A stretch of 64,000 bases of DNA from Patescibacteria group bacterium (GCA_038062915.1 JBBTWD010000002.1:5189-69188), one strand, 5' to 3'. Shown: positions 6,065-21,401, counted from the first letter of the stretch. The notes: generated by a model not told the origin, from the sequence alone. Made by a program: numbers and translations.

Positions 6065-6646
6065 TTAGAAAAGGCTTGCTTGTTTTTCATCTTCTTTTTT
6101 GGGATAGTTAAAATCTACTTTTACTTCATGCGTCTCATTCCAAAAATCAATATATTTTAAATATCCGTTTTTCATTCCAAAGTCGTAGATATCTTTTGTA
6201 ATAGCTACATCCATTTCACAATATTTTTTAAGCTTAGCTAGACTTTCGCTGTCTCCCTTATTCCAATACTTAATAGCATTCTCACCACTATCATTTTTGG
6301 TTAAATTAAGAGTGGCCCTAGCAAGAGCATCAAGTGAAACTCTTTTACCCAAGTATTCCTTAATTTTAGCTAAAATATCAAAATGTGGAAGTTTGGACCA
6401 ATGACTAGGTAAATAGAGAGAAAGTGCTGGAACATCAAAGGTAATTGAGTTAAAACCGATAATCCTATCTGCTTTTTCAAAAATCTTGAACATTTCAGGA
6501 AAATCTTTTTCCCAAAAGCTCATCATTTTACCTTCAACATAAAGTGAGACTATTGATACACCCAAGTCAGCTGGGTCGCTCCCCGCAATCTCATCAAAAA
6601 ACTTCTTCGTCTCACAATCAAAAACAACTTCAATTTTTGTATTCAT
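6065..6646 (-). CDS. 3'-5' exonuclease, DnaQ-like DEDDy family
   Basis: Exo I VVFDCETK (DxE), Exo II GFNSITFD, Exo III YCEMDVAITKDIY (Yx3D). Confidence 0.6.
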   Translation of the reverse strand: MNTKIEVVFDCETKKFFDEIAGSDPADLGVSIVSLYVEGKMMSFWEKDFPEMFKIFEKADRIIGFNSITFDVPALSLYLPSHWSKLPHFDILAKIKEYLGKRVSLDALARATLNLTKNDSGENAIKYWNKGDSESLAKLKKYCEMDVAITKDIYDFGMKNGYLKYIDFWNETHEVKVDFNYPKKEDEKQASLF

Positions 6647-7131
6647 GAAATTAGTTTTCTCTTGAAATTTTCTCCAGTAATAATTTTCTTTCCTGTTCTT
6701 TTTTCAAGCGCCAATCGCGCATTTTTTGCAATCCTACCACCTTTTTTGGCCGGAATCTTATTCTCTTTTAATCCCTTCGCTTGTTCTGTTTCCGCAATTT
6801 GTCTAATTGATTGTATAATTCTAAAAAGAGTTTCTGTGTCTGCTGTATCTGTTAAATACCTTTTTCCGTCTTGAGAAACCATTTTCAGTTGTACGATTTT
6901 TTCGTACAACTTACTTCCATCTTGTTTTAACTTCAGCTTTAAATCGGTCCAATATCTTCTTGGTATTGTGCTCCCTGTCAACACTTCAATAATATCAATC
7001 ACTGAGAAATACCATTTCTCTTTTTTATCGTCCCATAATCTCCGGACAGTTTTACCCTGAAATGAAATGATTTTATCTTCCATAACCATTATGGATATAT
7101 TGTATCTGAAGTTGATAACGGTGTTAAGCAA
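6643..7131 (-). CDS. Bro-N domain protein (DinD/antirepressor-like)
   Basis: FQGKTVRRLWDDKKEKWYFSVIDIIEVLTGS...RRYWTDLK...DGKRYLTDTADTETLFRII resembles the Bro-N fold; the start is possibly an internal Met. Confidence 0.5.
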   Translation of the reverse strand: MLNTVINFRYNISIMVMEDKIISFQGKTVRRLWDDKKEKWYFSVIDIIEVLTGSTIPRRYWTDLKLKLKQDGSKLYEKIVQLKMVSQDGKRYLTDTADTETLFRIIQSIRQIAETEQAKGLKENKIPAKKGGRIAKNARLALEKRTGKKIITGENFKRKLIS

Positions 7132-8462: not shown

Positions 8463-10429
8463 ATTTTGATTTTGATTTCCTTGTCAGTTGTGAGGAAGAA
8501 CTCTTCTTCAAATTTACCTAAATTAATTGTATAAAGAGGGCCATCAGTTCCTGGTTGTTTTTGGATTAAAATATTATAGCTTTTACTAAATTTCATAGGA
8601 AGTCGATATTTAAAAGTAACTTTAACTACCCCCTCGGGTCGCAGTTTATATAAACCTGCAAAAACAGTTTTACCTAAATCTTCATAGGATTGGGCTTTAT
8701 CTTCTAACCCTGTAGCCTCAATAAGCTCACTGCCTTTAGGTACATAAACCCTGACCCAACTTGGAAGTACAGAATTAAGCCAACCGTCGTGCTTTTCCGG
8801 ATTATTATAGGTAAGTGTAATGGTTTTAACAATACCTCCACCCTTTTCTATCTCAATCTCCTGGCCCACCTCGTGCTTTACATATAAATTTGATTTTCTG
8901 CCACCCAAATTCGAGTCGTTTATATGAAGATAGTCACCCTGATATTCCTCGATTTTACCTGCAATTCCAAAATCACTTACAGCTTTTTGAACTTTTTCAT
9001 CAAATAGGTAAAACAGAACATGTTTCTCGGTAACAGATTTATATGCCGCCCCAAATAACGCTGGTAATTTTTCTTTAGGTTGACCCAGAGCATTGGCTAG
9101 TACCGAATTCATTAAGGGTCCGATAATTTTTTTACGGTTGTCATAATTTGGAGGTGTAAAGACAATTTTGCCAGACACAGGATCCCAAACAATGGGTCCT
9201 TCGGTATCTGCAAAGCTCTCAAGCTCGTAAATTACTTGAGGGCAATTACATTTGGGCTCAACTAGCGTGCTAAAATTCCCAAATCCAGGGACGCCAATAG
9301 GTCCGATTGCGTTTAATAAATTAACAAGAAGCTGGGTATCTACTCCGATTATTCCATCAAACTCTTCAATCCCCACACTTTTAGCTTCCTGACTAAAAAG
9401 CTTCATACTCTCCTCAAAATCGGGGGACCAATTCATATCTCTCAAGCGCCAATTTTTCGAAAGAACGTAAGGACCCTTAATATAAGCGATGATAGGGTCG
9501 GGTGCTGGGATATTTGGTTTGTATTTTGCATCCAAATTATAAATATCATTAGAAGAAACTGGCTCGAATTTTGCATTTTCTACTTTTGTAACTGAATATG
9601 CTGTAAGAAATCCTCCGGTGGGACGAAGTTCTTTATCATTCTGGAAAAGGACCAGATATTTACGTGGTCCATCAATCCCTAAAATGTACGGGGCTATTTC
9701 TAAAAGTGGTTTGCCTTCAGTCACAAAGTCCGTTCCCTGATCAATGAAGAATTGAGCTTTAATAATAATTTTCTTAATTTCTTTTCCTTTGAATTTGTCC
9801 GGATATCTTTCAGGGTCAATTTCGTCAATTTCTGTTTTTACTATCTTAAGTTTTGACGAGATCTCATCAAGCTTAGGTATGATGTCAGGGATTGCTTTAA
9901 CTATAAAATCGATTCTCTCTTGTGTTGTTTTTGCTCCATCTACTTCTGATGTATATCCTAAAACGTCAGCGTACGGTAGCGCAGTTGTGACAACAATGTC
10001 AAAAGCGTCAAGGCCAGCATCGCCCGCCTTTATAATATGGCCCAAGTCTTTAGTGTAACCACCTAAAAAGGGTATTATTCTAGTCCAAGAAAAAATAAAA
10101 TAGCTCGTTCTAACCCTGCTTAAGTCTTTTTTAACATTTGGAATTTCATTTTTAACTGCAGATAAATTCCCAGTATCAGCAAGAGTGGCAAGTTTTTGGG
10201 ATGAAACTAACAAATTTTGTCCACTTTGATAAACAAAAAAAGCAGGAATAATAATTCCTAAAAGGAGAATACCTAAAACTACAGCAATAACTTGTAGAGT
10301 TTTTTTTGAAACTCTGGGTTTAACCTCAAGTTCTGGTTGAGGTTGAGGGCTACTTCCTAAATCAATTTTCGGAATTAAGACAGATTCTTCCATACTTATA
10401 AATATAATATCACACTGCTCCCTTACCAC
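8459..10429 (-). CDS. DUF4012-like membrane-anchored extracytoplasmic protein
   Basis: N-terminal TM helix; QNDKELRPTGGF motif recalled as the DUF4012 signature. The family is often linked to LCP and capsule loci. Confidence 0.45.
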   Translation of the reverse strand: MVREQCDIIFISMEESVLIPKIDLGSSPQPQPELEVKPRVSKKTLQVIAVVLGILLLGIIIPAFFVYQSGQNLLVSSQKLATLADTGNLSAVKNEIPNVKKDLSRVRTSYFIFSWTRIIPFLGGYTKDLGHIIKAGDAGLDAFDIVVTTALPYADVLGYTSEVDGAKTTQERIDFIVKAIPDIIPKLDEISSKLKIVKTEIDEIDPERYPDKFKGKEIKKIIIKAQFFIDQGTDFVTEGKPLLEIAPYILGIDGPRKYLVLFQNDKELRPTGGFLTAYSVTKVENAKFEPVSSNDIYNLDAKYKPNIPAPDPIIAYIKGPYVLSKNWRLRDMNWSPDFEESMKLFSQEAKSVGIEEFDGIIGVDTQLLVNLLNAIGPIGVPGFGNFSTLVEPKCNCPQVIYELESFADTEGPIVWDPVSGKIVFTPPNYDNRKKIIGPLMNSVLANALGQPKEKLPALFGAAYKSVTEKHVLFYLFDEKVQKAVSDFGIAGKIEEYQGDYLHINDSNLGGRKSNLYVKHEVGQEIEIEKGGGIVKTITLTYNNPEKHDGWLNSVLPSWVRVYVPKGSELIEATGLEDKAQSYEDLGKTVFAGLYKLRPEGVVKVTFKYRLPMKFSKSYNILIQKQPGTDGPLYTINLGKFEEEFFLTTDKEIKIKI

Positions 10430-11060
10430 TTATCATTATAAATGGAGTTTTGACTATTATTAGGATATCTAAAAGTAGAGATTTTTTTCTAGCGTAGTAT
10501 GCATCCATTTCGATTCGCTTATCAAAATTGATCTCACTTCTTCCTGAAACTTGCCAAAAACCCGTAACTCCGGGTTTGACAGTCTGCGTTTCTTTAATAG
10601 ACCCCTCTGTACCAGGATATTGCATTTTCTGCTCTGTAAGCTCATCGGCATGATAAGGTCTTGGCCCCACAAGGCTCATCTCACCCCTTAAAACGTTAAA
10701 AAGTTGCGGCATCTCATCAATAGAATACTTTCTCATAAATTTACCAAATCTTGTAACTCTTGGGTCATTGTGCAATTTAAAACTAGATTTCTTATACTCT
10801 TTATAAAGTTTTTTAAATCGTGGGTCCTTTGTTATCAACCGATCCGAATTAACCGGCATTGATCGAAATTTATACAACCTAAATATTTTGCCATCCTTCC
10901 CAATCCTTCTCATATGGGCATTGTTCTTTTCTACAAGCACAGGACCAGGAGCGGTCAACTTTGTTATCATCGAAGCCACAAGCATTACAGGAGAAAATAA
11001 AACAATTAAAAAAATCGAGGATAAAATATCTATTATTCTTTTAACTATTTCGTAGTACAT
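10410..11060 (-). CDS. Polyprenyl-phosphate sugar-1-phosphate transferase (Bac_transf family, WbaP/CpsE-like initiating enzyme)
   Basis: KRIIDILSSIFLIVLFSPVMLV...GKDGKIFRLYKFRSM...DEMPQLFNVLRGEMSLVGPRP. Confidence 0.85.
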   Translation of the reverse strand: MYYEIVKRIIDILSSIFLIVLFSPVMLVASMITKLTAPGPVLVEKNNAHMRRIGKDGKIFRLYKFRSMPVNSDRLITKDPRFKKLYKEYKKSSFKLHNDPRVTRFGKFMRKYSIDEMPQLFNVLRGEMSLVGPRPYHADELTEQKMQYPGTEGSIKETQTVKPGVTGFWQVSGRSEINFDKRIEMDAYYARKKSLLLDILIIVKTPFIMISGKGAV

Positions 11061-11061
11061 T

Positions 11062-12204
11062 TTATAGAAGCTCTTTTCTGTTTTCCTCTTTTAGTTTTTC
11101 AACTATTTTCTTAACACTTTGTGCGCGACTTTTGGTTGTTACCAACAGTGCGTCTTCGGTATCGACTATAACGAGATTGTCCACGTCAACTACTGCAATG
11201 AGCCTTCTATCTGTATATATCAAAGCGTCAGTTGTGTCGATATTTATAACTTCAGCTTTATTTTCTTCTTTAGTTATTATCACATTGCCACCATGATCCT
11301 TTGGGATATTTTCCCAAACTTCTTTCCAATCACCTATATCAGTCCATCCATAATCAGCAATTGCCATAATAAAATTCTTGGCTTTTTCGCTTACCGCATA
11401 ATCAACTGATATGTCAGGTAAGTCCTCATATACAGATTTTGTCGTTTCTGATTCATTTTTTTGCCCTAAAGCATCGGCTATTTTCTGCATGCCATTTGCT
11501 ATTTTAGGAGCGTGTAGATTCAAGGCATTAAGGAAACTCTGTGCTCCCCAAACATATTGATTGGCATTCCAAAAATATTTTCCTGATTGCAAATATTCCT
11601 TTGCAACACTCAATTCTGGCTTTTCTGTAAACCCTTCTAATTTAAATATATGTTTACCGTCGGATTCACTTAATTTGTCTCCCAATTTAATATACCCGTA
11701 ACCAACATTTGGATATGTCGGTTTAATACCAATAGCCAACAATAAATCCTTTTCATATACTGCCCCAGCACAGGAAAGTAAATTTTTTAAATACTCTCTT
11801 TGGGGGTCAACTAGATGATCCGCTGCTTCGTTTAGAATAACTGCCTTAGAATCTTTTTTTAAAATATAGACAGCTCCTAGCGCGTGCGCAGCCGCAGTAT
11901 TTCTTTTCATCGGTTCAACAATAATATTTTCGGCTAGAAATTCGGGTACCTCATCTATAATTTCTTTTTTATATTGGCTAGAAGTCGTCACTGCAAAAAT
12001 TTTCTCCCAGGGAAGAATTTTGTTAAAACGATACGAAGTGATCTGGGTTAAAGTTTTATTATCAAAAAGCTTTAAAAATTGTTTTGGAGAGTTAACTCTT
12101 GAAACCGGCCATAGACGCGTTCCGCCACCCCCAACCACCAACAAAGCGAATAAGTGCTTTTTGTAGTCGTCTCTTGAAAACTTCTTTAGAAAATTTTTGA
12201 GCAT
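11062..12204 (-). CDS. manC: Mannose-1-phosphate guanylyltransferase (GDP-mannose pyrophosphorylase)
   Basis: LVVGGGGTRLWPVSR...PKQF N-terminus. The annotated ATG overlaps the upstream ORF by 113 nt; an internal TTG/GTG start at LLVV is possible. Confidence 0.8.
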   Translation of the reverse strand: MLKNFLKKFSRDDYKKHLFALLVVGGGGTRLWPVSRVNSPKQFLKLFDNKTLTQITSYRFNKILPWEKIFAVTTSSQYKKEIIDEVPEFLAENIIVEPMKRNTAAAHALGAVYILKKDSKAVILNEAADHLVDPQREYLKNLLSCAGAVYEKDLLLAIGIKPTYPNVGYGYIKLGDKLSESDGKHIFKLEGFTEKPELSVAKEYLQSGKYFWNANQYVWGAQSFLNALNLHAPKIANGMQKIADALGQKNESETTKSVYEDLPDISVDYAVSEKAKNFIMAIADYGWTDIGDWKEVWENIPKDHGGNVIITKEENKAEVINIDTTDALIYTDRRLIAVVDVDNLVIVDTEDALLVTTKSRAQSVKKIVEKLKEENRKELL

Positions 12205-12640
12205 TGGCTATTAGCGTTCTTCTATTAAAGCTCATTTTATCAAACTTTTCAATTGCACGAGTCAAACTCTCTTCATTTTGTTCATCAAATAAAATCCCAG
12301 TCTGATTATCTATAACAGTGTCAAGAGCTCCGCCTTTCTTGTGTGCAATTACTGGAACACCCAAGCTCTGTGCTTCAACTGCAACAATTCCAAAATCCTC
12401 CTCTTGTGGCATTATCAAAGCTTTGGCATTTTTATAATAATCTATTAATACTTCATCGCTAACTTGACCAACAAATTTAATATTGCTATATGCCATATGC
12501 TTTAAGCTATATGTACGACTTCCAGTGCCAATAATTACTAGTTTTTTATTTAGTTTATTAAAAGTTTTAACCAAAAGTTCAACTTTTTTATAATTTACCA
12601 GTCGACCCACATATAAATAATACTCTTTCAGGTTTTGCAT
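12092..12640 (-). CDS. GT4 glycosyltransferase, C-terminal (Glycos_transf_1) half only
   Basis: YYLYVGRLVNYKKVELLV...EDFGIVAVEAQSLGVPVIA. No N-domain; overlaps the N-half ORF by 13 nt in another frame. Confidence 0.6.
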   Translation of the reverse strand: MQNLKEYYLYVGRLVNYKKVELLVKTFNKLNKKLVIIGTGSRTYSLKHMAYSNIKFVGQVSDEVLIDYYKNAKALIMPQEEDFGIVAVEAQSLGVPVIAHKKGGALDTVIDNQTGILFDEQNEESLTRAIEKFDKMSFNRRTLIANAQKFSKEVFKRRLQKALIRFVGGWGWRNASMAGFKS

Positions 12641-13182
12641 GATGGAAATATTACTTCAGAATCTCGATCGTAATATTTTTTAATTCTTCTTTTTACTTCA
12701 GTTGATATTGCAATTATTTTATCAGGACGAGTAGACGCAATTTTGTCCCAAGCTCTCAGATAGTTGATAACTGGTTTTGAAATAAACCGCAAAATCGGAT
12801 TTTTAAAATACAAATCATAATGACTCCATAAATAACGAGTAGGTGTCAACATGTAGCAAATGTGTTTTGTACCCGGTTTTGTAATAATTCCTTTTGCCGC
12901 CTCACTAGTAACCGAAATTGCCAAATCATACTCATTAAAATTAAATTGCTCAAAAGCTAGGGGCATTAGCCATCCCAATCCCTCATGCCAACTTTTGGCA
13001 AAAGGAATTTTTTGTATAAATGAAGTGTGGATTTTGGGGAAAATCTTTGCCCAAGCCGCATTTTTTTGATCATAAACAGAAGTATAAAGTGGTGCGTCAG
13101 GGAACATTTCATGGAGAGTTAAAAGTACCCTCTCCGCCCCACCCCACTTATTTACCCTGTCATACACAATAGCCGTTTTCAT
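12628..13182 (-). CDS. GT4 glycosyltransferase, N-terminal (Glyco_trans_4-like) half only
   Basis: IVYDRVNKWGGAERVLLTLHEMF...; ends ...SEVIFPSCKT immediately before the YYLYVGRL of the next ORF. Confidence 0.6.
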   Translation of the reverse strand: MKTAIVYDRVNKWGGAERVLLTLHEMFPDAPLYTSVYDQKNAAWAKIFPKIHTSFIQKIPFAKSWHEGLGWLMPLAFEQFNFNEYDLAISVTSEAAKGIITKPGTKHICYMLTPTRYLWSHYDLYFKNPILRFISKPVINYLRAWDKIASTRPDKIIAISTEVKRRIKKYYDRDSEVIFPSCKT

Positions 13183-13185
13183 CGT

Positions 13186-13215
13186 TTGAATTTTACACCA
13201 AAAACCGTTTATACT
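13186..13215 (+). promoter_or_regulatory. Candidate sigma70-like promoter for the TrpR-like gene (TTGAAT, 18-bp spacer, TATACT)
   Basis: Hexamers read directly at 13186-13191 and 13210-13215. Confidence 0.3.
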
Positions 13216-13243
13216 AAACTTATATCCGTATACTAGTACATAG
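13205..13243. promoter_or_regulatory. Operator-like repeats CCGTTTATACTA / CCGTATACTAGTACA overlapping the putative +1 region
   Basis: Near-palindrome ccgtatactagtacatag (13226-13243); 14 of 15 positions match the perfect palindrome downstream of the same gene. Confidence 0.35.
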
Positions 13244-13249
13244 ATTTAA

Positions 13250-13660
13250 ATGAGAAGATATAAATTTCTACTTAAAGAGGAAGTGTTTGAGGCTTTAAAT
13301 AAGTTAAGGGCTGCGTTTTTGGCAGCAAAAGATGGCAATGAAGTTGAAGAAATCATAAGAGGAATACTAACCAGCGACGAAAGAATTAAAATCGGAAGAA
13401 GAATTTTGATTTCTCAACTTCTAGATGAAGGGCTTACTTTTGAAGCTATTAGTAAAGATTATAGAATCGGGAAGCAAACTGCACTCCAAGTGCAAAAATT
13501 AAAAGATAGATACCCAAAGTGCTTTGAATTAATTAGTCAAAGGGTGGAAAAGGTAGAAATAGAATTTGGTAAAAAAGCTTATATTAAAACAGGTAATCCC
13601 AAATATCTCAAAAAATTTATTGAGTATACAGGGTTTAAAAGAACAGATGTTAAAAGGTAG
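13250..13660 (+). CDS. Small helix-turn-helix protein, TrpR/YerC-YecD-like
   Basis: 136 aa; the pattern DERIKIGRRILISQLLDEGLTFEAISKDYRIGKQTALQVQK resembles the Trp-repressor-like fold family; the only plus-strand gene in a minus-strand block. Confidence 0.5.
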   Translation: MRRYKFLLKEEVFEALNKLRAAFLAAKDGNEVEEIIRGILTSDERIKIGRRILISQLLDEGLTFEAISKDYRIGKQTALQVQKLKDRYPKCFELISQRVEKVEIEFGKKAYIKTGNPKYLKKFIEYTGFKRTDVKR

Positions 13661-13666
13661 TTTGTA

Positions 13667-13686
13667 TCCGTGTACTAGTACACGGA
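13667..13686 (+). terminator. Perfect 20-bp palindrome tccgtgtactagtacacgga followed by TTTTT; intrinsic terminator and/or second operator copy
   Basis: Read directly from the sequence; it overlaps the stop codon of the convergent GT4 C-half ORF. Confidence 0.45.
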
Positions 13687-14187
13687 TTTTTCATAAACAT
13701 TTAACGTTTCTTTGACCATTTTGTGCCAGCTGTAGCGCTTGACGAATTTTTGAGCGTAGGTGATTTTAGATTTTCTCTCGAATTCAGACAAATTTAGTGC
13801 CATCTTTAAAACCTTTATAATTGAATTTGAATCAAGCGGATTAAAATATATAGCTGCATTTTTGTAAACTTCTCGGAATACTGGAATATCACTACATAAA
13901 ACCAGGGTCCCTGCTTTCATCGCTTCAATTCCAGGAAGTCCAAAACCTTCTGAAAGAGACGGAAACACAAAAGCAATTGAATTTTTATAAAGACTTTTAA
14001 GTTTGTTATCTGGTACAAATCCCAAAAGTTTTACGTATTTGTTTTTATTTACTTCGAGTCTTTTAGTGAATACATCTCTACTTGAAGCTATACATAAATT
14101 TACCTTTAGTAAATTAATTGCACTAATTAATCTATCAAGGTTTTTATGTGGATAGGCACTACCCACATATAAAAAATAACTATTCAT
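13675..14187 (-). CDS. GT4 glycosyltransferase, C-terminal half only
   Basis: YFLYVGSAYPHKNLDRLISAIN...FPSLSEGFGLPGIEAMKAGTLVLCS; overlaps the N-half ORF by 8 nt. Confidence 0.6.
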   Translation of the reverse strand: MNSYFLYVGSAYPHKNLDRLISAINLLKVNLCIASSRDVFTKRLEVNKNKYVKLLGFVPDNKLKSLYKNSIAFVFPSLSEGFGLPGIEAMKAGTLVLCSDIPVFREVYKNAAIYFNPLDSNSIIKVLKMALNLSEFERKSKITYAQKFVKRYSWHKMVKETLNVYEKSVY

Positions 14188-14698
14188 ATATTACCTCCAC
14201 TTTTTCATTTTTTATTTTGTAACAGTTAACTAGTTCGTTTTTAATGACACTACTTGGAACTATTATTCTGACCGAACCCATAACAGCTTTTGCAAATGAT
14301 ATGTAATAACCAAGTCGCCAAATTTGGTAAATAGGAAACGGTCTGGTTGTGGCCTCCCCGCCAATAAACTTATGCATAATAAGATCATGAATTGTTACAA
14401 TAAATCTTCCAAAGTAAAAAAGTGGTACGTTGAAATGGGGAAAGTGAACAATATCTGGTTTATATTTTGAGATAAGAAAAGGAAGATAAAGTTGCTCTGA
14501 AAAACTATAATGTCTAAAATCTGCTTTAACTTTTTGCCAACTTTTAGGTAAATTTATACCAAGTTTATCTTTTCTTAGCAATATTACATATTTATTCACT
14601 TTGTCAATTTTTGCCAGATTTTCTACTAAATTCATTGTATATCTACCGTTGCCTGCATGTTCTGGGCCGTAAATTCTGGCGTCGATCAATATTTTCAA
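14180..14698 (-). CDS. GT4 glycosyltransferase, N-terminal half only
   Basis: MKILIDARIYGPEHAGNGRYTMNLVENL... GT-B N-domain; ends ...KVEVIYE. Confidence 0.6.
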   Translation of the reverse strand: MKILIDARIYGPEHAGNGRYTMNLVENLAKIDKVNKYVILLRKDKLGINLPKSWQKVKADFRHYSFSEQLYLPFLISKYKPDIVHFPHFNVPLFYFGRFIVTIHDLIMHKFIGGEATTRPFPIYQIWRLGYYISFAKAVMGSVRIIVPSSVIKNELVNCYKIKNEKVEVIYE

Positions 14699-15567
14699 TG
14701 AAGTATGGTTCTAACAAAACGACCCAATTTCAATAACTTTATTCCAGTTAAAACAAGAAGATTTATAGGTAACGGGTAACGTTTCCATAGAAACTTCTTG
14801 TAAAAAATTTCCATTGAATTAACTGAAGCCATCCGAAACTTTAGACGTGAAGTTAGTGGGACTTTTTTCTTTGTTTCATTTTTTCCTTTAGAAGCTCCTT
14901 TAAGATGAAGTATGGAAACTTTTGGAAAGTAATAAATTTTATAACCCTTTTCTTTAATTTTCCAACAAAGATCAATATCCTCTCCATCAAGAAAATATTC
15001 TTCAGAAAACCAGTTAACTTCATCTAAAATTTTCTTACGCGTTAGAAAAAATGCCCCCTGGATAACTTCCACTTCGTGTGTCAAATTTTCATTTACATCC
15101 CTATACCAATATAATTTGCCGTTCCCCAAAATCAACCTATTAAAGGAAATCAAAGGTGTAGGAAATCTCCGTCTTGAATCGGGATCCAGCTTCCCATTAA
15201 CCAAAACTGTTTTACAAGTCACAGCCCCAATGTTTTTATTGCTGTTTAAATATTTGATCGTTTCTCTAATTGTGTTTTTATATACAACTGTATCGGAATT
15301 AAGAAAAAGGATGTTTTTGCCCATGGCGACTTTTCTTGCAGCGTTATTACCCTTAGCAAATCCCAGGTTATCATCGTTTTTAATAAGCTTGACGTTTGAG
15401 AAATCGCTTTCAACCATTTCAATACTTCCGTCAATTGAACCATTATCGGCAACAATAACCTCAAATAAAGCCTCACCCTTTACCTTTTTTAATGAATTAA
15501 GACAATCACGAAGAAGGTCTTTTGTATTAAAACTAAGAATTATTATTGAGAGTTCGAGTTTGTTCAT
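14695..15567 (-). CDS. GT2 family glycosyltransferase
   Basis: LSIIILSFNTKDLL...VIVADNGSIDGS...LFLNSDTVV (DXD). Confidence 0.85.
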   Translation of the reverse strand: MNKLELSIIILSFNTKDLLRDCLNSLKKVKGEALFEVIVADNGSIDGSIEMVESDFSNVKLIKNDDNLGFAKGNNAARKVAMGKNILFLNSDTVVYKNTIRETIKYLNSNKNIGAVTCKTVLVNGKLDPDSRRRFPTPLISFNRLILGNGKLYWYRDVNENLTHEVEVIQGAFFLTRKKILDEVNWFSEEYFLDGEDIDLCWKIKEKGYKIYYFPKVSILHLKGASKGKNETKKKVPLTSRLKFRMASVNSMEIFYKKFLWKRYPLPINLLVLTGIKLLKLGRFVRTILH

Positions 15568-15576
15568 AATCGCAGA

Positions 15577-16776
15577 TTATATCAAACTATGTTTGTTATA
15601 GATTTGATCTAGATATTGGCTCATTTTATACCAACTATACTTTTCTTCAACCAGCTTCCTGGCATTTGTTGAAATTTTTTTCGCAAACTTTTCATCCGAA
15701 AGAATATTAACAGTCGCCTCCGCCATTGATTCTGGATCATCCTTGATGATAATATTAACTCCGTCAGTCGCACCCAATCCTTCAGATCCCACAGAGGTTG
15801 TAATAAGGGGAAGCTTGGCTGCCATTGCCCCGAAATGCTTCAGTCTGGTTCCCCCCGGCCCCTTTAGAGGGGAAACAAAAGCCGAGGCTTTATAATAAGC
15901 ATTCCTTATACCTTCCTGGTCATCTTCTTTTAAATTATCTACGAATATTCTTTTAGATTTTCTCGATAAAATATTTTTCGGGATATATTGACCAACAATC
16001 CATATTTTAACTTTTGGATTTTTGGACCATATGAAAGGGGCAACATCATTTAATAAAAGTTCTGCGGCTTCGATATTTTGCAGCCACTTGAAGTTTGCTA
16101 CAAACAATACTTTTTGTTCATTTTCATTCCATGATGTTTTTAATTTAAAAAAATCTAAATTCACTCCATTGGGTACAAGACCCACTTCAAGTTTTGGGGC
16201 TAGGTCAAGCATTACTCTTTTATCCTCTTGCGACACAGCAACAACTCCATCAGCTTTCTTCCAAAACTTAGTTTCCCAAAATCTAAGCTTTGCCACATCT
16301 ATAGAAAGAAGCAATCTTAACAAGAGATTTTTAAGTCCCTCTACATAATGCTTATAAACAAGGTATTCGATAGTCTGTTCTACTAAAAGAATAGGAACTT
16401 TAGTACTAGGAATATGGGGCATAACATAAAAAGTCTCTGCATGAATCAAGTCATACTTATTTTTTTGGATTTCTTCTTTAACGGCAGATCTTTCTTTCGA
16501 TGAAAGATTTCTAATAACTAAAAATGGATAAGGACCAAAACCAGTTAATAGAATATTACGTAGAGTCCAGGGAGATTTTGACCTTTTAAAGACTTTAACC
16601 TTTTTACAATATTTTTCTAGTTCAGGAATAAACCTTTTTTCTGAATCATCCTTGATTAATGAAAATAATGTAATCTCATGTTTTTTACTTAAGTGCTTTA
16701 TTAGATTATACGATCTAATTTGCCCACCAGAAGATGGAGGAAAGGGTAAATACGGCGTGAGCATTAATATTTTCAT
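15577..16776 (-). CDS. GT4 family glycosyltransferase
   Basis: MKILMLTPYLPFPPSSGGQIRSYNL... N-terminus and a Glycos_transf_1 C-domain. Confidence 0.85.
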   Translation of the reverse strand: MKILMLTPYLPFPPSSGGQIRSYNLIKHLSKKHEITLFSLIKDDSEKRFIPELEKYCKKVKVFKRSKSPWTLRNILLTGFGPYPFLVIRNLSSKERSAVKEEIQKNKYDLIHAETFYVMPHIPSTKVPILLVEQTIEYLVYKHYVEGLKNLLLRLLLSIDVAKLRFWETKFWKKADGVVAVSQEDKRVMLDLAPKLEVGLVPNGVNLDFFKLKTSWNENEQKVLFVANFKWLQNIEAAELLLNDVAPFIWSKNPKVKIWIVGQYIPKNILSRKSKRIFVDNLKEDDQEGIRNAYYKASAFVSPLKGPGGTRLKHFGAMAAKLPLITTSVGSEGLGATDGVNIIIKDDPESMAEATVNILSDEKFAKKISTNARKLVEEKYSWYKMSQYLDQIYNKHSLI

Positions 16777-19455: not shown

Positions 19456-20371
19456 AAATTTTTACCGAATCCAACCCCTCGAGAATACCAAAAAGAATAA
19501 TTCTACCCAGTGCTCCCACCTTAAGAAACATTCTCAAAACCGGATATTGCCAACGTGGATAATGTTTGGAATAAAATTTTTTAACTCCTTCGTACTCCTT
19601 AAGTAGGGCAAATTCGCTGGTTTTAGAACTTGCACCTCCCAAATGTGTAATCTTCCATTTAGGTAAATACCAAACCTCATATCCAAGATTTTTTATTCTA
19701 AAACATAAATCGACCTCTTCAACATACATAAAAAAAGTCTCATCCCATCCATTAGTTTGCTTTAAAATTTCTTTTCGAGTTAAAAGATAGGCTCCAGTTA
19801 CCCAATCAAGTTGTTTTTTGGATCCGTAAAAATCAGTCCCTTTTGAAAAAAATGATTTTGAATGAAGTGGGTGGAATGGCTTAATCAGTTTATCCACAAA
19901 TGGAAAGTCTTGAATTATCATCCAAGAAAAAACTCGTAGTAAAGTCGGAAAATATCCACCTGTAGCTTGAAGACTACCATCTTTATTTTTTAACCCACTG
20001 CTTGATACCCCAACCTTTGGGTTTTTCTTCATATGGTCAACCATCTCACCCAAAACATTATCGTGTATCAAGGTATCTGAATTTAAAAACAAGATGTATT
20101 CCCCACTGGAATTTTTGGTACCAATATTATTACCTGTAGCAAAACCTAAATTTTTTGAATTTCTAATTACTTTCGCTCCCAAACTCATAGATATTTTTAC
20201 AGAATCATCGGCTGATGCATTATCAACAACTATAATTTCATAAGTTACACCCTTTGTGTATTTTTTAACTGATTTAATACAAGAAGCTAAAATGCTACTT
20301 GTATTAAAGCTTACAATTACAATTGAGAGATCCATTATATCCAAAGTTTCCTTTTTGATGTTTTTACCCAT
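19430..20371 (-). CDS. GT2 family glycosyltransferase
   Basis: LSIVIVSFNTSSIL...IIVVDNASADDS...LFLNSDT. Confidence 0.85.
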   Translation of the reverse strand: MGKNIKKETLDIMDLSIVIVSFNTSSILASCIKSVKKYTKGVTYEIIVVDNASADDSVKISMSLGAKVIRNSKNLGFATGNNIGTKNSSGEYILFLNSDTLIHDNVLGEMVDHMKKNPKVGVSSSGLKNKDGSLQATGGYFPTLLRVFSWMIIQDFPFVDKLIKPFHPLHSKSFFSKGTDFYGSKKQLDWVTGAYLLTRKEILKQTNGWDETFFMYVEEVDLCFRIKNLGYEVWYLPKWKITHLGGASSKTSEFALLKEYEGVKKFYSKHYPRWQYPVLRMFLKVGALGRIILFGILEGLDSVKIYAKAFRIA

Positions 20372-20847
20372 TCATTAATCAAAACCCACATAACAAACAT
20401 TGTGGCAATGCCAATAAAAATCCTGATAAAAATATTAGACCCAACATATTTAATTATGGTTTTTTGCTTGTAACCAACGCCGTTTGCTGTCAGGATTTCT
20501 TTGTCAGGTGTAGGTTCATAACCGTTAATATATAAAGATTCACGCATAGGGTGGACTATTTCTTCTAAAAACGAGCTACTTGTTTGGTCACGGACTAAAG
20601 TTTTTGCCATCTCTGGAGGATAATTAAGGCGTACCCCCCATTTAAACTCTTTAGAATAATGGCTTATAAGCTGGTCACGTGTCACATTTGTATAATAGCC
20701 ACGCCTTAATGGAGTTTCTCTGTCTGCCGGTTGATCCGACGGCATAAAATCCCATAATGCTGTAGGGAACTTGGGTTCTGGGAGTGATAAATAAATCAAA
20801 AAAAGTAGGCTAAATACTATATACAATATACTAAATACATTCTTCAT
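20335..20847 (-). CDS. Hypothetical membrane protein (TM helices at N- and C-termini)
   Basis: ORF with hydrophobic termini; no family recognised. Confidence 0.4.
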   Translation of the reverse strand: MKNVFSILYIVFSLLFLIYLSLPEPKFPTALWDFMPSDQPADRETPLRRGYYTNVTRDQLISHYSKEFKWGVRLNYPPEMAKTLVRDQTSSSFLEEIVHPMRESLYINGYEPTPDKEILTANGVGYKQKTIIKYVGSNIFIRIFIGIATMFVMWVLINEWVKTSKRKLWI

Positions 20848-21401
20848 TGGAATAATCTAGCCCTGCCTAGTTTATATTGAGGATTTTTGTTTGTGCGCTC
20901 ACCAATAATTTTTGCTGGAACCCCTCCGACTATTGCAAAATCGGCAACATCTTTGGTTACAACCGCCCCAGCCGCAATAATTGCCCCGCGGCCAATTTTA
21001 ACCCCAGGCAAAATTGTTACCCTGGGACCTATAAAAACGAAGTCCCCTATTTCGACACTTCCATAGCTAGCAGAAAAATTATCACTGTTAACGTCATGTT
21101 CAGAGTTATAAATCATCACACTTGAAGCTATGTCAACATGACTACCTATGGTGAGTTTTTCTCTACCGTCCAAAAATGCATGGTCACCAATAATAGTATC
21201 TTCGCCTATTTCAATGTTTTCCGGTTGAAAAAAATTAGCCCACATATGAATAGTTGAGCCTTTTCCTATTTTCATCCCAAAAAATCTGTATTTAAATTTG
21301 CGGATGGTATGTGACGGAATATGTCCTACCCATCTTAAATACATAAGCTCTGTGTCAAGCCAATAATTGTATAGACGGTTAATTATTTTTTGTATTAACA
21401 T
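20844..21401 (-). CDS. Hexapeptide-repeat (LbH) sugar O-acetyltransferase
   Basis: IGDHAFLDG...IGSHVDIASSVMIYNSEHD...IGDFVFIGPRVTILPGVKIGRGAIIAAGAVV. Confidence 0.8.
   Translation of the reverse strand: MLIQKIINRLYNYWLDTELMYLRWVGHIPSHTIRKFKYRFFGMKIGKGSTIHMWANFFQPENIEIGEDTIIGDHAFLDGREKLTIGSHVDIASSVMIYNSEHDVNSDNFSASYGSVEIGDFVFIGPRVTILPGVKIGRGAIIAAGAVVTKDVADFAIVGGVPAKIIGERTNKNPQYKLGRARLFQ

Follow-up and report, generated by a model that had tools for sequence, protein, structure and literature searches.

Two GT4 glycosyltransferases in a 64,000-nucleotide stretch of DNA from a groundwater Patescibacteria group bacterium (GCA_038062915.1, JBBTWD010000002.1:5189-69188; this whole stretch is the window below) are each encoded as two overlapping open reading frames (ORFs), one for the N-terminal and one for the C-terminal domain. 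In our judgment both pairs are very probably genuine two-gene enzymes of a surface-polysaccharide locus, with halves made by coupled translation and assembled in trans. For the pair that we call GT2 (14180..14698 / 13675..14187) a two-polypeptide GT4 is strongly supported and we hold this reading with high confidence, and for the pair that we call GT1 (12628..13182 / 12092..12640) it is likely. The term GT2-family enzyme, which is also used below, is separate from this naming. WIN denotes the copy in the present 64-kb window, L-numbers denote related loci, and P-numbers denote homologous proteins. The preliminary description of this DNA had reported four ORFs with their coordinates, their end and start peptides, and overlaps of 13 and 8 nucleotides, all of which we confirm as follows:

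14180..14698, minus strand: GT2_N, an ORF of 172 residues ending in ...KVEVIYE*; N-terminal (acceptor-side) Rossmann domain of a GT4
13675..14187, minus strand: GT2_C, an ORF of 170 residues with start MNSYFLYVGSAY / MNSYFLYVGSAYPHKN; C-terminal nucleotide-sugar-binding domain
14180..14187, minus strand: GT2 junction, an 8-nucleotide overlap ATGAATAG with the C-half ATG inside the N-half Tyr-Glu codons; the N-half stop is TAG
14194..14198, minus strand: GGAGG, a Shine-Dalgarno-like motif that lies 6 nucleotides upstream of where GT2_C starts and arises from the GT2_N codons for Val-Glu-Val
12628..13182, minus strand: GT1_N, an ORF of 184 residues ending in ...SEVIFPSCKT*; N-terminal domain of a WbaZ-like GT4, probable mannosyltransferase
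12092..12640, minus strand: GT1_C, an ORF of 182 residues with start MQNLKEYYLYVGRL; C-terminal domain
12628..12640, minus strand: GT1 junction, a 13-nucleotide overlap ATGCAAAACCTGA without a Shine-Dalgarno-like motif upstream
N-terminal peptides of the two C-halves: MNSYFLYVGSAYPHK, MQNLKEYYLYVGR

Both C-halves match Pfam Glycos_transf_1 (PF00534) far above the cut-off (4.4e-33 for GT1_C and 1.2e-24 for GT2_C), and the E-x7-E motif can be read in both translations, as EDFGIVAVE in GT1_C and EGFGLPGIE in GT2_C. GT2_N matches Pfam Glyco_transf_4 (PF13439) at 2.5e-11, with 44.3 bits against a cut-off of 28.5. GT1_N scores 21.9 bits against the same family, below that cut-off, and aligns end to end with the N-halves of single-chain homologs of 351-401 residues at 76-83% identity, several of which carry PF13439. 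Across all four halves the Pfam scan returned GT4-type families alone, with no Alg14 or Glyco_tran_28_C, and no specific NCBIfam equivalog was found at the cut-off for either enzyme. Since the GT1 and GT2 enzymes are only about 21% identical, they belong to distinct GT4 subfamilies, as had been proposed. The placement of both breaks at the boundary between the domains was also correct: alignments with homologs, together with an AlphaFold model of a fused relative, put each break in the length-variable interdomain linker, which is largely missing. These genes do not encode the linker-joined single polypeptide of a standard GT4, since the domains lie on separate, overlapping ORFs in different frames, the shift from the N frame to the C frame being -1 for GT1 and +1 for GT2.

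The split of GT2 is shared by many relatives. We considered the top 120 matches for each enzyme when the concatenated N- and C-halves were used as a query, and for GT2 all of these were single chains of 359-393 residues at 52-60% identity. GT2_N alone retrieved at least 120 clusters at 64-75% identity and full coverage, the top 120 all being 165-187 residues long and having the Glyco_transf_4 domain only; 108 of 120 N-half clusters are 172-174 residues long and end in YE or YEG. Many of these homologs lie on contigs of 50-840 kb, and the database names of the halves are generic ("glycosyltransferase," "hypothetical protein," "mannosyltransferase B-like"). Synteny is kept in L004, L006, and L007, where a GT2-family enzyme is followed by the N-half (173 residues), the C-half (176-186 residues), GT1, manC, Bac_transf, DUF4012, and RecO, and where the C-half starts 8 nucleotides before the N-half stop. 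A scan of GTDB species representatives gave 80 GT2 loci. Among species with an N-half identity of at least 60%, 13 are split and the exceptions are the fused sisters L012 and L017 (368 residues), and all 64 scorable loci below 50% identity are fused, those of Saccharibacteria, Parcubacteria, Magasanikbacteria, Komeilibacteria, and WWE3 included. We take the split of GT2 to be old and conserved, going back to the ancestor of a Woesebacteria/Microgenomates clade, and fused sisters of the split gene still exist at about 68% identity.

Every split GT2 locus has an adjacent C-half ORF, and 17 diverged loci have a common junction geometry in which the C-half ATG sits within the Tyr-Glu codons (T-ATG-AA). 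Two variants of this junction occur, with an 8-nucleotide overlap (YE*) or an 11-nucleotide overlap (YEG*). The N-half stop is TAA, TGA, or TAG depending on lineage and always stands at the same position, and since the identity of the stop codon varies at a fixed position, there appears to be selection for keeping a stop. Both halves evolve under purifying selection, with a nonsynonymous divergence (dN) of 0.18-0.36 and a saturated synonymous divergence (dS) above 1.1, which gives a dN/dS of roughly 0.1-0.2. GT2 thus lacks the marks of a pseudogene, in that its dN/dS is low, its halves are open across the 17 diverged loci, and its start and Shine-Dalgarno motif are conserved. The preliminary description had proposed a check of orthologous loci, and its outcome differs between the two enzymes: the same split recurs across the GT2 relatives in these 17 loci, but GT1 is intact in 16 related loci and split in one other lineage.

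The sequence just upstream of the GT2_C start bears on how this half is translated. At the codon that forms the Shine-Dalgarno-like motif (K-V-E-V-x-Y-E), Glu is present in 101 of 120 split N-halves (84%) compared with 19 of 114 fused homologs (17%), in which this position is otherwise freely variable. We take the Glu enrichment to reflect nucleotide-level selection for a ribosome-binding site within the upstream coding sequence, and a selected ribosome-binding site in turn favours independent, coupled initiation of the GT2 C-half. Otherwise this genome makes hardly any use of Shine-Dalgarno motifs: in the window, a motif of this kind is absent at 51 of 59 gene starts and GGAGG occurs at only 2, one of them GT2_C; same-strand neighbours commonly overlap by 4-40 nucleotides. 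The ATG of GT2_C looks pre-adapted in fused genes, as 28 of the 39 fused GT2 genes that could be parsed already have TATGAA, TATGAG, or CATGAA where Tyr-Glu (or His-Glu) is encoded. The 11-nucleotide form could be derived from a gene of the L012 type (TAT GAA GGT ATT GAT ...) through a 2-nucleotide deletion after Tyr-Glu-Gly and loss of the remaining linker, and such a derivation could keep the Asp of YEGxD as residue 4 of the C-half (MKxDYF). An alternative genetic code with readthrough of UGA or UAG was considered and discarded, because the C-halves are in other frames and reading past the stops gives no glycosyltransferase motif.

Loss of the linker is common to both enzymes. In GT2, single-chain homologs have linkers of at least 16 residues (n=97) and the split genes 2-7; in GT1, single-chain homologs have at least 13 residues, with a mode of 16 (n=111), and the split genes 6-7. 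Because the linker in the split genes is below that of every natural single chain, a product fused by frameshifting would have an unnaturally short linker. The AlphaFold model of the fused sister P0132 (predicted local distance difference test score [pLDDT] 92, predicted template modelling score 0.88) shows what has been removed: its one long coil covers residues 171-191, bridging the final strand of the N-domain (168-170, VTYE) and the strand that opens the C-domain (192-196), and it is exactly this segment that the split GT2 genes lack. Foldseek matches of this model include MshA, BshA, WaaG, PimA, PglA, and other GT4 enzymes (E 1e-15 to 1e-20), and an AlphaFold2 model of isolated GT2_N is Rossmann-like (pLDDT 78). 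The P0132 model ends in a C-terminal helix (353-366), and in GT-B enzymes the C-terminal helix canonically packs against the N-domain.

If these genes work as we propose, then each of them would have undergone a deletion that took out the flexible linker between the domains and changed the frame, so that the reading frame of the N-terminal, acceptor-side Rossmann domain now closes with a stop codon. Each N/C pair would be transcribed together, and the C-half would be translated from the ATG that overlaps the N-half stop by 8 nucleotides in GT2 or 13 in GT1. This translation may be coupled to that of the N-half, aided in GT2 by the GGAGG embedded in the N-half coding sequence, and would yield the halves as separate chains. 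The two chains could then bind each other without a covalent link and form the catalytic cleft at their interface, and the C-half would probably pack its canonical C-terminal helix against the N-half. What the sequences show is the split with its reproducibility and conservation, the purifying selection, the selected ribosome-binding site, and the lost linker; separate translation is an inference from them, and for assembly and activity in trans we argue from how GT-B enzymes are built and by analogy with Alg14/Alg13 and EpsE/EpsF, which are discussed below.

The GT1 split is rare. All of the top 120 matches to the concatenated GT1 halves are single chains of 351-401 residues at 61-71% identity, and no intact GT1 allele above 71% identity was found among 5.8 billion proteins. 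Two frames occur only in WIN and in L018, a soil metagenome-assembled genome (MAG) whose record title is mislabelled Alphaproteobacteria. In L018, GT1_N has 189 residues (...IIFPPCKI*) and GT1_C has 173 (MQNLKYYLIVSRL...), and the junction ATGCAAAATTTAA has a 13-nucleotide overlap as in WIN, with the same MQNLK encoded by synonymously different codons and with the stop TAA in place of the TGA of WIN. A metagenome-wide scan for the GT1 junction pattern gave 70 matches, of which 69 were due to chance and one was L097; this locus is 99.6% identical to L018 and comes from a different assembly, and so the L018 split is reproducible.

The closest relative of the L018 GT1 is the intact L006/P0080 (about 80% identity), and those closest to the WIN GT1 are the intact P0001, P0003, P0006, P0016, and P0041. 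Among intact GT1 linkers, only the L006/P0080 type (VDIQSNIKNIESKRK) clearly resembles MQNLK, so that WIN appears to have a junction like that of L018 and L006 on an N-half of another type, for which L018 ranks 119th of 136. This suggests one origin of the junction followed by its spread by recombination within a mosaic locus, convergence being less likely. Sliding windows and a three-taxon site count applied to WIN-L018 recombination in GT1 gave no significant signal in the flanks, with 23 of 133 control outgroups showing an equal or stronger skew. A 6-residue indel in GT2_C was tried as a synapomorphy of WIN and L018 and dropped, as it is common to many members of the split clade.

As for the substrate of GT1, the sequence in the PDB that matches it best is 2F9F, "first mannosyl transferase (wbaZ-1)" (7e-20), and the gene lies directly upstream of manC and overlaps it. 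Because it adjoins and overlaps manC, GT1 may well be a GDP-mannose-dependent transferase. Over its last 113 nucleotides (12092..12204) GT1_C runs into the 5' end of manC, which is read in another frame, and one stretch of DNA encodes both the GT1_C tail (...LIRFVGGWGWRN...) and the GGGGTRLWP nucleotide-binding motif of manC. The tail and this overlap are kept in many homologs and in L004, L006, L007, and L018.

The preliminary description had offered sequencing indels and programmed frameshifting as alternatives to separate polypeptides, and we reject both. MAGs can carry indel errors, and the junctions are near short homopolymers, which could favour an assembly or sequencing error as the cause of the splits. 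The exact GT1_N protein is, however, encoded on 7 contigs, and 3 contigs of other assemblies (Logan ERR3858118 and the Hainich groundwater assemblies ENA ERZ1292635 and ERZ1292643) match the window at 99.9% identity, each differing by a single mismatch and aligning without gaps; both junctions are covered by one of these 3. Four independent assemblies therefore agree, as do L018 and L097 with each other, the GT2 junction is kept in 17 loci of unrelated studies, and the other approximately 55 genes of the window are intact, which argues against decay of the genome in general. We give errors or general decay practically no chance of being the explanation. Frameshifting or transcriptional slippage that restores a single chain at each junction would be compatible with the overlapping frames, with AAAA near the GT1 junction, and with TTTTTT just after the GT2 stop, but is very improbable. 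Opposite shifts would be needed (-1 in GT1, +1 in GT2), neither an X XXY YYZ nor a prfB-like motif is present, and the GT2 junction differs by lineage, with 2 forms, 3 stop codons, and no conservation of the T run. In the GT2 C-frame a TAA lies 2 codons before the ATG, which leaves about 8 nucleotides for the shift, and the fused product would have a linker of 2-7 residues compared with at least 13-16 in natural single chains. Selection on the Shine-Dalgarno motif and the ATG points instead to independent initiation.

The alternative that deserves more weight is a mixed case, in which GT2 is a functional split enzyme and GT1 here is a pseudogene that was inactivated recently. Frameshift loss of glycosyltransferases is frequent in polysaccharide loci and changes the surface glycan. 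The 16 related loci and each of the 120 closest homologs in the database have GT1 as a single ORF, and a search of 1.84 billion representatives gave no GT1_N family of uniform half length; the short matches there are irregular in length and run into the C-domain, as expected of contig-end fragments. WIN and L018 are each nearer to intact relatives than to each other, so that each split may be young, and a TrpR-like cassette, described below, is inserted just upstream of GT1_N in this genome only and may have disturbed the operon. Set against this, the split is present without exception in the sampled contigs of the population, an in-frame ATG lies exactly at the domain boundary and overlaps the stop, and no second lesion is found over 1.1 kb. 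At 111 positions conserved in at least 95% of 135 intact GT1 homologs, WIN keeps 109 residues and L018 107, compared with a mean of 109.5 and a minimum of 105 in the intact genes. The MQNLK junction, with its synonymous differences and its other stop, recurs in a second species with both halves open, which is hard to account for with independent pseudogenes, and, set beside the shortest intact homolog, both copies lack 6-9 or more residues of linker, a kind of loss that GT2 has undergone as well. On balance we consider the mixed case unlikely. Several observations do weigh against two functional split enzymes and should be considered together. No Shine-Dalgarno-like motif precedes GT1_C; GT1 is split in only 2 of 18 informative loci, and WIN and L018 are not sisters in any of 30 bootstraps. 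If the two GT1 splits were independent and recent, then a low dN/dS would mostly reflect their history before the split, and a young pseudogene would be possible. For GT2, a neighbour-joining phylogeny gave 27% bootstrap support for a single split clade, and the fused L012/L017 may be nested in it; the WIN GT2_C has a lineage-specific 5-residue deletion (RLE-----VNKNK) absent in other split or fused homologs; and the GT2_N model is of moderate confidence, its loop 105-114 having a pLDDT below 50. The WIN GT2_C also retains the ancestral GLPGIEA, most split-clade members having GLPP(M/K)EA. We nevertheless prefer two-gene enzymes for both pairs. The idea of separate polypeptides forming a GT-B enzyme, one of those first put forward, has gained strong backing for GT2 (at least 17 loci and at least 120 clusters) and moderate backing for GT1 (a second lineage, no decay). 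The accompanying argument, that one break point in two paralogs speaks against decay, stands in that random decay is disfavoured, but the two splits are not equivalent, with that of GT2 ancestral to a clade and that of GT1 rare and lineage-restricted.

Split GT-B enzymes with an active site between 2 proteins are known as Alg14/Alg13 in eukaryotes and EpsE/EpsF in bacteria and archaea (PMC8993221). The genes of MurG-like split GT-B enzymes are usually adjacent in prokaryotes, and their history includes fission, with fused relatives persisting (PMC8993221). As in the Alg14/Alg13, EpsE/EpsF, and Cps14F-G-type enzymes, the N-domain (acceptor/membrane side) and the C-domain (nucleotide-sugar side) are here separately encoded, and as in the first two systems the separate, adjacent genes are conserved across taxa, in 17 loci and at least 120 N-half clusters for GT2 and in 2 lineages for GT1. 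Those systems are inverting UDP-sugar transferases related to families GT1/GT28 and match Pfam Alg14 and Glyco_tran_28_C, whereas the present halves are Glyco_transf_4 and Glycos_transf_1 of the retaining GT4 family; in addition, the N-half here has no evident membrane anchor, and the fission is much younger, being limited to a Woesebacteria/Microgenomates clade. The label "Alg13/Alg14-type" given in the preliminary description is thus apt as an analogy and not as membership, as neither half matches the Alg14 or Alg13 Pfam families. Judging from these parallels, the present pairs most likely work like the Alg14/Alg13-EpsE/EpsF system without being members of it.

Single-chain GT4 enzymes such as MshA, BshA, WaaG, PimA, PglA, and the WbaZ-type mannosyltransferases have the same fold, the same domains, and E-x7-E, and the locus is of a kind typical for polysaccharide assembly. 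In those enzymes, however, at least 13-16 linker residues join the domains in one chain, whereas here the linker is deleted and the domains are in separate ORFs. The best solved-structure match to both families is PDB 2F9F (A. fulgidus wbaZ-1), a 177-residue chain of about the size of a C-half with a Glycos_transf_1 domain only, which may be a natural stand-alone gene or a truncated construct; we found no paper that calls it half of a split enzyme. A literature search, limited to one library, found no described split GT4, the only split GT-B enzymes described being the MurG-like Alg14/Alg13 and EpsE/EpsF.

The locus in which both pairs lie is a typical surface-polysaccharide cluster, with manC, an initiating Bac_transf sugar transferase, a DUF4012 protein, two GT2-family enzymes, and a Wzy-like protein, and its three further GT4 genes are unsplit. 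The window has a G+C content of about 34% and ORFs of up to 1177 residues, homologs are named Patescibacteria, Microgenomates, or Woesebacteria, and Rfam and tRNA scans across the window gave no matches. Two adjacent pairs of ORFs of approximately 170-190 residues (20335..21401 and 6065..7131) were examined as further split glycosyltransferases and proved to be unrelated genes. One of these ORFs, 20335..20847 on the minus strand, follows a hexapeptide acetyltransferase gene and encodes 170 residues without a Pfam or NCBIfam match; an ORF of the same size without a Pfam domain stands at the equivalent position in L004, L006, and L007, which makes it a conserved component of the locus with unknown function.

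Between GT2_C and GT1_N, in this genome only, is a gene for a TrpR-like protein of 136 residues (13250..13660, plus strand; Pfam Trp_repressor, 3.3e-7). In L004, L006, and L018 the GT2 and GT1 genes abut or overlap without it. The gene is flanked by copies of a 28-nucleotide repeat (13220-13247 and 13662-13689) that are 86% identical and each palindromic around ACTAGT, and the right copy contains a perfect 22-nucleotide palindrome ATCCGTGTACTAGTACACGGAT in which the final residues and the stop codon of GT2_C are encoded as well. The ACTAGT-centred motif is absent elsewhere in the 64 kb, with 3 matches against 0.02 expected. One possibility for the segment 13220..13689 is a regulator cassette that was inserted together with its operators; another is a small mobile unit.

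Compared with loci L004-L022 and L070, the locus at 10410..16776 is strongly mosaic. Its manC is 81% identical to that of L010, 36% to that of L018, and about 26% to those of L012, L015, and L017, and the upstream GT4 at 15577..16776 is 75-79% identical to L016, L019, and L022 and about 45% to other loci. This pattern points to frequent gene-sized recombination or replacement, and on account of it a species tree built from neighbouring locus genes was unusable. Several MAG records that carry this clearly Patescibacteria locus (L011, L012, L016, L018, L021, L070, and others) are titled "uncultured Gammaproteobacteria," "Alphaproteobacteria bacterium," or "Woesearchaeota archaeon," and these titles appear to be taxonomic mislabels.

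A more speculative extension is that halves could pair across enzymes, for example GT1_N with GT2_C, or be exchanged singly through recombination within the mosaic locus, to give combinatorial GT-B enzymes. We regard this as improbable, and if it were true, such combinations would diversify surface glycans faster than the replacement of whole genes, and the GT1 junction in two non-sister lineages would represent lateral spread of a "split-ready" module boundary.

The enzymes of GT4, one of the largest families of glycosyltransferases, are regarded as having their two domains on a single chain. A conserved two-chain GT4 family would mean that the covalent interdomain linker is dispensable in GT4, and the genes described here may offer a snapshot of gene fission, in which a cryptic ATG in conserved codons and loss of the linker were followed by the gain of a ribosome-binding site in the upstream coding sequence. 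They could also serve as natural templates for GT-B engineering, with acceptor and donor domains mixed in trans. The finding also bears on annotation, as hundreds of "half" glycosyltransferases of Patescibacteria now go under the labels hypothetical, partial, or pseudogene.

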